Assembly (NCBI GenBank): GCA_964016885.1
Contig: OZ024740.1
Span: 345,278,001 to 345,342,000 of the forward strand
Reading direction: 5' to 3'
From: Eledone cirrhosa
Taxonomy: Eukaryota
DNA length: 64,000 nucleotides
In this document: piece after piece, positions 18,630 to 19,787 of the stretch
Layout of the letters: each line of letters opens with the position of its first letter
How positions within the stretch are numbered: the stretch's first letter is position 1
Notes under the pieces: model-generated
What the model was told of the DNA's origin: nothing
Database searches by the model: none
What the model saw: the letters and a program-made list of their open reading frames with translations, nothing else
Made by a program: the position numbers and the translations under genes

Positions 18630-18697
18630 ATATCGAGAATGACACAGCTAGAGACTAAGTCTCTAGCTGTGTCATTCTCGATAAAAGCACTGGATAT

Positions 18698-18740
18698 GTA
18701 ATCCTGAAGATTTCTAATAAGAATGAAACGCGTAGATTAC
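18698..18740 (+). ncRNA. Type I hammerhead ribozyme (minimal, palindromic stem III), copy 1
   Basis: GTAATC-CTGAAGA-T-TTCT-AATA-AGAA-T-GAAAC-GC-GTA^GATTAC. Stem I is extended by the 16-bp pairing ATTCTCGATAAAAGCA/TGCTTTTATCGAGAAT. Predicted cleavage after 18734. Confidence 0.9.
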
Positions 18741-19007
18741 TTCCCTTGCTTTTATCGAGAATCTAATTGTAATACGTGACGTATTCTATTCTATAGCGAT
18801 TAGGTCTTCAAAATGTTTATTATAAACATACAGAATATTTTCGAATATTCTATGTCTATATTCACATATATATCGCTATTTCAGAGCATTTATTCCAATT
18901 TCTAATTTCTGCCGGACCGGCAACCGCTCTTTCAAACCAGTTCCTGTACACAGCTAAGTATTCTATAAGTCTCTAGCTGTGTCATTCTCGATAAAAGCAC
19001 TGGATAT

Positions 19008-19050
19008 GTAATCCTGAAGATTTCTAATAAGAATGAAACGCGTAGATTAC
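19008..19050 (+). ncRNA. Type I hammerhead ribozyme, copy 2
   Basis: Identical to 18698-18740 at an offset of 310 nt. Predicted cleavage after 19044. Confidence 0.9.
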
Positions 19051-19787
19051 TTCCCTTGCTTTTATCGAGAATCTAATTGTAATACGTGACGTATTCTATT
19101 CTATAGCGATTAGGTCTTCAAAATGTTTATTATAAACATACAGAATATTTTCGAATATTCTATGTCTATATTCACATATATATCGCTATTTCAGAGCATT
19201 TATTCCAATATATATATATATATATATATATATATATATATATATTTATATATATATATATATATATATATATATATAGATAGAGAGAGAGAGAGAGAGA
19301 GAGAGAGAGAGAGAGAGAGAGAGAGAGAGAGAGAGAGAGAGAGAGAGAGAGAGAGAGAGAGTTAAATAGTTAGACAGATATAGATATTCATTGACACACG
19401 CGAGTGTCACACACACACGCACACGTACATATATATTGTATATATATGGTTTCGTAGCATGGTCAGAGTTCATGGGCTGGAACATATGGTAAAATATAAA
19501 ATATATACATATACGTGTGTCAATGTGCGTGTGTCGAGAAAACGAAAAATCAGTGATGCATCTGAACTCGATTTATTGTGTGTTACAATTGTTTCCCCGG
19601 CAGACAGCTCGAGACGTGATCATTGTGTGGATCTGTCTGATTGTAGACCTGCAGGTTCGACGGACACGTCGAATGATTTCGGAGCATATTTTCCCATATA
19701 TATACATATATATATATATTATATATATATATATAATGTATATATATATATATATACATATAAATATATATATATATATATATATAT

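Follow-up and report, generated by a model that had tools for sequence, protein, structure and literature searches.

How did a short tandem repeat with two identical hammerhead motifs come to lie in the genome of Eledone cirrhosa, and is an RNA circle made by these hammerheads the template from which such repeats are copied? The locus occupies positions 18631-19278 of the window, by which we mean the whole stretch of 64,000 nucleotides that was analyzed, on contig C1 of a 3.0-Gb host assembly (1,796 contigs). A reading of the window from its letters (the sequence-only reading) had proposed a young, mobile retrozyme that releases a 310-nt RNA. Here we set this proposal against the rest of the genome and against published systems.

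Anatomy of the locus

An exact 244-bp direct repeat (18656-18899 and 18966-19209, spacing 310) holds the two identical hammerheads, and perfect 26-bp inverted arms (18631-18656 and 18658-18683) are centered on A18657, both as the sequence-only reading had described. We numbered the repeat unit from u1 (window 18657) to u310 (18966), which gives the following features:

18631..18656, minus strand: inverted 5' stub, the reverse of unit positions 2-27; it forms a very short second arm whose fold-back junction is symmetric
18657..18966, plus strand: complete 310-bp repeat unit (u1-u310)
18674..18762, plus strand: hammerhead 1 with extended stem I, from the descriptor scan and covariation in relatives
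18735..19044, plus strand: predicted 310-nt monomer between the two cut sites, with putative release and ligation
18793..18946, plus strand: conserved module (about u137-u290), kept in sister families with different hammerheads and including both 3'-end sites
18967..19209, plus strand: second, partial unit (u1-u243), which forms a pseudo-LTR and stops at the tailed site
18984..19072, plus strand: hammerhead 2, identical to hammerhead 1, with its core CUGAAGA at 19014 and a predicted cut after A19044
19184..19209, plus strand: 26-nt 'tail', bounded by the short (u217) and the tailed (u243) 3'-end site
19210..19278, no strand: (TA)n target tract

The monomer has 33.5% GC, and the longest ATG frame on its circularized form is 30 codons on the plus strand and 17 on the minus strand, in line with the earlier view that the locus has no credible coding frame. 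That the element sits inside a TA tract is correct for the right flank only, where (TA)n is long; to the left lies the 3' end of a different mobile repeat (17943-18632), in which TA occurs about three times, and the stub adjoins the last TA bases of this neighbor. The window copy is made of a 1.8-unit tailed right arm and a 26-bp symmetric stub that replaces the short-ended left arm, at a place where most relatives have a long inverted arm. It is thus an atypical, nearly one-armed copy, and it belongs to a minority (CUGAAGA) subfamily. The stub arose either by an early fold-back joining of the cDNA or by deletion of a longer left arm. If transcribed, the two hammerheads of the locus would be enough for one dimer and one monomer.

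A weakened type I hammerhead

The core CUGAAGA occurs at 18704 and 19014, each time with a 6-bp stem I. In hammerhead 1, proximal stem I pairs 18698-18703 with 18735-18740, followed by the core (18704-18710), stem II (18711-18724, a U·U and then 4 bp), GAAA (18725-18728) and the palindrome ACGCGU (18728-18733), and the cut at the GUA site is predicted after A18734. Past an internal loop, stem I continues as a 16-bp distal helix (18674-18689/18747-18762), and this extended stem I is predicted to hold the 5' and 3' ends of the monomer together. The motif had been called fully canonical. This was too strong, since positions 10.1/11.1 at the base of stem II depart from canonical type I pairing, with U·U instead of the usual G-C, and stem III of the monomer has a single A-U pair closed by CGCG. 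The motif is a weakened canonical type I hammerhead, like two axolotl motifs (PMC7229834). The minimal PLE hammerhead (min-HHR) has a stem I of 4-5 bp, an ill-defined loop 1 and a stem II of 7-8 bp (PMC4209133); with its 6-bp stem I, 16-bp extension and 4-bp stem II the present motif falls outside this definition. At the base of stem II, the window copy and most subfamilies have U·U, one subfamily has A-U and several sister families have G-C.

The monomer has a folding z of -5.1, with none of 100 shuffles equally stable. Constrained folding of 18657-19209 gave -134.5 kcal/mol for the dimer-active fold, -126.8 kcal/mol for two monomer-active folds and -140.2 kcal/mol for the free minimum; the predicted dimer-active fold would lie 7.7 kcal/mol below the two monomer-active folds and 5.7 above the unconstrained minimum.

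Rfam scans of 17945-19205 returned no hammerhead at E≤10 and only microsatellite- or hairpin-driven miRNA noise, and the hammerheads are therefore identified by the descriptor scan and by the covariation seen in relatives. We collected 15 distinct hammerhead variants from 28 loci of this and sister families. All of them keep the 3:8 pair (9 as C-G, 6 as U-A), while N7 takes all four bases and the cut site is GUA, GUC or GUU. The 15 variants have nine different stems III, all near-palindromic; the filter required near-palindromy, so the turnover of the sequence is the informative part. Covariation at 3:8 and this turnover argue for a functional, dimer-acting ribozyme that was selected across the families. 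The 3:8 pairing is backed by the C3G/G8C rescue in the published Anolis PLE study.

Within the family, purifying selection on the core was not detectable, with a singleton rate of 0.17% in the core and 0.15% at non-CpG sites. The core holds 1 of 42 array-level variant positions (about 1.7 expected) and is intact in 394 of 402 sampled units, both in a sample biased to intact motifs. Natural hammerhead forms with a U3-A8 pair exist, and a literature search for them found nothing relevant. Elsewhere in the window, a lone hammerhead-like motif lies at 51909 on the minus strand (CUGAUGA ... GAAA, 8-bp stem I); it resembles one at locus L103 and is probably part of another PLE-related repeat.

A large and young family with sister families

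The genome contains 15,237 exact copies of the ribozyme motif, 1,146 with CUGAAGA and 14,091 with CUGAUGA, and reversed-pattern controls gave none; thousands of exact genome-wide copies exclude chance and a local assembly artefact. The tandem junction is also present in contigs from three other public runs. A DNA search with the unit resulted in 184 matches (40 scored of 181 candidates), with full units 97-100% identical on many contigs. Units are 310-311 bp long and form near-identical tandem arrays, mostly flanked by (TA)n; 15,237 copies of 310 bp would amount to about 4.7 Mb of palindromic arrays at TA tracts. Hence, this is a dispersed, high-copy, recently mobile family. The sequence-only reading had inferred recent mobility, which is supported together with high copy number and tandem arrays, and its assignment to the retrozymes holds by unit size, GC content, lack of coding capacity, one type I hammerhead per unit and high copy number.

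Sister retrozyme families (L047, L049, L064, L179, L181-L214) add 6,319 further exact motif matches. They have units of about 314-330 bp and share u137-u290 with the present family, but their hammerheads differ from it; several of these have a U3-A8 core and a longer, palindromic stem III. The shared module is likely the region recognized by a PLE.

Four of six public runs (kind not on record) were compared as contigs with 18560-19045. In three of them the unit is reduced to a single 340-nt contig that closes on itself, as a tandem and a circle would both give, which is not informative on expression; the letters of these contigs match the majority subfamily of this genome. Three public runs (X4, X5, X6) labelled as three other organisms contain the unit at about 99% identity, which may reflect close relatives, relabelled samples or transfer.

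Insertions have two different ends

We parsed 77 insertions (510 pieces of at least 40 nt), which were chosen by full-unit or intact-motif matches and lie mostly on contig C1, and tabulated 76 of them, leaving out L020. Outer ends were called short (about u217) or tailed (about u243-248). The table contains 61 simple head-to-head insertions, 14 one-armed insertions and 1 complex one. Both ends were seen in 58 of the head-to-head insertions: 53 paired a short with a tailed end, none had two short or two tailed ends, and 5, including the window locus, had one atypical end (p 2e-16 for the short-tailed pairing against 0.5). TA repeats adjoin 122 of 136 outer ends, a raw count in a genome that is itself TA-rich.

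The inner junctions occur at scattered positions, in most cases share 0-5 bases and show no enrichment at the cut site (4/122 within u74-86, 5.1 expected). Cut-site indels (u74-85), considered as a sign of end-to-end template jumps, were absent from about 398 units, which says little given that only about 1.8 were expected. Arms have a median length of 2.1 units, the longest having 46.5, and 81 of 106 are longer than one unit and cross a cut site. The insertions show the marks left by PLEs, namely a partial tandem with an inverted 5'-truncated copy, two fixed internal 3' ends that bound a tail, and a bias for (TA)n, and a PLE mechanism for the family is well supported.

Some independent insertions reuse one inner junction, u18/u91 in L141 and L151 (within the extended stem I inverted repeat) and u86/u277 in L211 and L212, showing that junction hot spots exist. 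L001 and L010 were considered as one duplicated insertion; their junction is the same, and this was rejected on their different flanks and haplotypes.

The neighboring repeat at window 17943-18632 belongs to a non-coding family that forms tandem and inverted copies, with a 616-bp unit, a 74-bp terminal repeat, 2,800 candidates and copies 95-97% alike. Its ends fall at two fixed sites 40 nt apart, with a short and a tailed end in 4/4 two-armed loci (L031-L042; the query was biased to the tailed end). A descriptor scan of this family found no full hammerhead, only a CUGAUGA half-core, though short tandems form, and it is likely a non-autonomous PLE without an intact ribozyme. The motif GGTCTTYAAA is common to this repeat (18520-18530) and the retrozyme (18802-18812), about 70 nt upstream of the short 3' ends. 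It could be a protein-binding site or chance, and it is absent from the ends of the two autonomous families inspected. A bacterial promoter scan, not relevant here, stayed below shuffle level.

An autonomous PLE with the same insertion habit

The genome contains 10,595 GIY-YIG candidates. Among them is an autonomous PLE with a 4,211-bp tandem-forming unit (L133:2658-6869, C4 near 322.58 Mb), in which a 476-aa frame overlaps a 775-aa RT/GIY-YIG frame, suggesting a frameshift. The element is very young, with whole-unit tandems and inverted pairs; more than 100 of the 150 copies listed do not differ over the RT stretch, and the 775-aa frame is complete in many. Its hammerhead is built like that of the retrozyme, with U·U and a palindromic stem III, and 10/10 head-to-head pairs picked from the listed copies have a short and a tailed end and lie in (TA)n. 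The cysteine linker between RT and endonuclease fits the published description of Neptune/Nematis, and we call the element Neptune-like. The best matches to the protein are 64-65% identical; the named relatives come from bivalves and bivalve-associated bins, in agreement with a molluscan host. The 476-aa first frame gave no Pfam match and no usable ESM Atlas match.

The 4,211-bp element and the 310-bp unit have no common sequence beyond the ribozyme core, and for this reason we did not assign it as the helper. BLAST and nhmmer searches with the unit and the conserved module against 50 GIY-YIG loci and 7 more (57 in total) found only nested retrozyme copies. A 3,410-bp gap between two motif matches on C1 was considered as an autonomous parent and rejected, as it is a long array (L043). 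Another PLE family, at L093 (C1 near 145.87 Mb), has a unit of about 5 kb with a long repetitive 3' UTR and a U3-A8 hammerhead with an ACCGGU palindrome, which the CUGAnGA descriptor missed.

Both arms are probably copied from one template

Divergence averages 0.78% within arms, 0.65% from one arm to the other in the same insertion and 2.4% between insertions. Arm haplotypes agree in 44 of 45 insertions, compared with 7.1 by random pairing. Rare array-fixed variants sit in all units of both arms (10/10 in L141, 10/10 in L151, 8/8 in L166, 6/6 in L156, and likewise in L145 and others). Among the non-fixed variants, 168 of 193 are singletons, and the 25 shared ones are confined to 10 of the 48 insertions with at least 5 pieces. 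The other 38 arrays are star-like. Star-like arrays and rare variants fixed in both arms imply a bottleneck of one unit followed by amplification, and we read both arms as copies of one template, usually a one-unit template copied many times, as a circle provides. A recombinant fixed at the cut site was considered as the origin of the window haplotype and rejected, since a stepwise path via L043 and L053 explains it.

Could the template instead be a linear, multi-unit transcript? A PLE would then twin-prime on uncleaved RNA, the hammerhead would be slow or regulatory, circles, if any, would be by-products, and long arrays would be kept by unequal crossing-over. At L213, a locus of a sister family, each arm has an outer unit that is unlike the inner ones, and L211 is a mosaic with one inner unit of another haplotype; both patterns are easier to reconcile with a multi-unit template, or with conversion, than with a monomer circle. 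Block duplications or higher-order variant blocks in four long arrays (L043, L020, L155, L167) point the same way and, together with the shared variants in 10 of the 48 larger arrays, indicate that DNA-level expansion also occurs. In the published passages covered, Anolis PLE cleavage is dispensable for insertion in vitro, hammerhead mutants having no effect and uncleaved RNA being the main substrate, and Naiad PLEs, which have no hammerhead, also make tandem and inverted insertions. The one-unit bottleneck of the star-like arrays speaks against this alternative, as does the rarity of variants mirrored at equal rank from the outer ends: among 94 observations from 56 complete two-armed insertions there are 2, and both belong to L024, an insertion that is centre-symmetric as well. 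The covariation of the hammerheads across families, a sign of selection on the fold, also counts against it. We regard a linear template as unlikely, with a sizeable chance left to it.

Two observations stand beside this question. The arm of about 46.5 units at L176/L043 (C1:217.795-217.810 Mb) has variants that recur 11 units apart, the result of an internal block duplication. At L213 (C1:23.437 Mb), an A15.1-to-U core change is common to 3/5 hammerheads and occurs in both arms, so that a probably dead ribozyme was multiplied within this one insertion.

The second arm could also be a fold-back, self-primed copy of the first cDNA, which would equally give one haplotype in both arms; self-priming has been put forward for the Penelope palindromes of rotifers (PMC3846280). 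This origin agrees with the symmetric junctions of 3 among the 61 head-to-head insertions, the window copy included, and with 8 centre-mirrored variant sites in 4 insertions, which arm-to-arm conversion would give as well. However, a fold-back leaves unexplained why the second arm ends at the other fixed site in 53/53 typed pairs. Moreover, the tailed arm is the longer one in 25/53, without bias, and 88 centre-rank variants are not mirrored; we consider this origin of the second arm improbable. A further possibility is an ordinary satellite, or a repeat of the SINE type, that a LINE or DNA recombination has moved and whose hammerhead-like motif is decayed or there by chance, or else a duplication made locally in the assembly. 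The absence of an Rfam match and of a homologous autonomous partner among the 57 loci would agree with this, yet it is very improbable given that the resident PLE has the same fixed internal 3' ends, tail, inverted arms and TA targeting, that the ribozyme changes are compensatory and that the tandem junction recurs in contigs of three other public runs.

A model for the spread of the family

Overall, our analysis suggests with good confidence that the family, with about 15,000 young units, belongs to the non-LTR retrozymes as a non-autonomous Penelope-like element and spreads in four steps. Tandem transcripts would self-cleave after GUA, mainly as a dimeric hammerhead via the ACGCGU palindromes, to give the 310-nt monomer, a step that we consider probable. 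By analogy and from the structure of the arrays, the monomer would then be ligated into a circle, for which the balance is moderately in favor. In the third step, whose footprint is seen in the insertions, a Neptune-like PLE protein would very probably cut (TA)n and prime reverse transcription at u217 and u243, one at each end of the break and both on one template. The two cDNAs would extend over anything between a fraction of one unit and many units, end at scattered points and join head-to-head, usually over 0-5 shared bases, and the palindromic insertions with one short and one tailed end are the footprint of this outcome.

Cleavage, expression and circularity are extrapolated from the systems of PMC7229834. 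In Xenopus, 8/9 tested retrozyme dimers showed no cleavage in vitro (bioRxiv 10.64898/2026.07.22.740005), and the U·U in stem II and the one-pair monomeric stem III, which both weaken the hammerhead, count against the model. The same holds for the energy of the dimer-active fold above the free minimum, for the core that is not measurably spared within the family, and for the short tandems formed by the 616-bp neighbor, in which the scan found no full hammerhead.

A more specific form of the model is asymmetric twin priming, which is plausible, if short of probable. One protein dimer would prime both ends of a (TA)n break on one and the same circular RNA, at fixed sites separated by 26 nt, and both reverse transcriptases would roll round it and produce multi-kilobase palindromes; the element would be mobilized in trans by a PLE that recognizes an RNA module non-homologous to its own ends. 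If this is true, the arrays would document, through thousands of events in one genome, that hammerhead-made circles are true transposition templates in an animal.

The element itself was to be expected, and its value is that of a test bed with unusually clean insertion statistics. The published passages covered name two questions as open: by which route PLEs produce tandem and inverted insertions, and whether the circles of retrozymes serve as templates. About 15,000 young units, the rule for the ends, same-haplotype arms, sisters with swapped ribozymes and a resident intact PLE make a sharp prediction for both questions, and the strict two-ended pattern hints at how Penelope-type retrotransposons integrate.

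Comparison with known retrozymes and PLEs

The sequence-only reading overrated the novelty of the locus, as both the class and its link to PLEs are already in print. It also missed the 16-bp distal stem I helix, the atypical minority status of the window copy and the full PLE insertion anatomy of the family. Our searches found no published cephalopod retrozyme and no strict short-tailed rule with same-template arms, with Repbase/Dfam and supplements outside their scope, and the main text of the 2026 Octopus vulgaris repeat annotation, in the parts covered, does not use 'ribozyme' or 'retrozyme' (PMC13282606).

Non-LTR retrozymes of coral, mussel and axolotl are non-coding tandem units of 150-450 bp with a type I hammerhead each (Cervera and de la Pena 2020, PMC7229834). 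The present family resembles them in its tandem non-coding unit, low GC content (<50%), one type I hammerhead per unit and thousands of copies. The axolotl motifs have either a one-pair stem III with a palindromic tetraloop or U·U at the base of stem II (HHR_Amex2) and work better as dimers (PMC7229834), whereas the present motif combines the two weakening features. For those retrozymes circular RNA was demonstrated, while the present circle is predicted from DNA; inverted two-armed insertions, the tail and (TA)n targeting are not described in the passages covered of that paper.

Li, Clavereau and Pollet (2026; bioRxiv 10.64898/2026.07.22.740005) described retrozymes as non-autonomous PLEs, with a pseudo-LTR sequence link in 24 of 57 families in Xenopus. 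Co-occurring autonomous PLEs and tandem hammerhead units near 310 bp are common to their system and ours. In the passages covered, their sampling contained no mollusc, and our link to PLEs comes from insertion anatomy, with no homologous PLE among the 57 loci. Their work favors local expansion by unequal crossover, whereas most arrays here look as if they were born as multimers.

The closest parallel in insertion anatomy is with EN+ PLEs such as Neptune, Poseidon and Naiad (PMC8557442, PMC3846280, PMC11167929, PMC4209133). Both combine partial tandems with an inverted copy that is truncated at its 5' end, and have in common a tail on one side only, reverse transcription from two adjacent internal sites, extension of both target strands, microsatellite targeting and a hammerhead in the terminal repeat. 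In particular, the Anolis PLE protein cuts AT-rich DNA and extends both strands, two adjacent internal start sites bound its tail, and it is predicted to be a dimer. Unlike the EN+ PLEs, the present element has no ORF, and its tail is 26 nt instead of 30-40 nt. The tail is optional or often at one end in the passages covered of these papers, whereas we observed a near-strict short-tailed rule and same-haplotype arms. The proposal that circles serve as templates was also published before (PMC4209133). The class, this proposal and the PLE origin are thus already known, and the element extends a known class to another genome.
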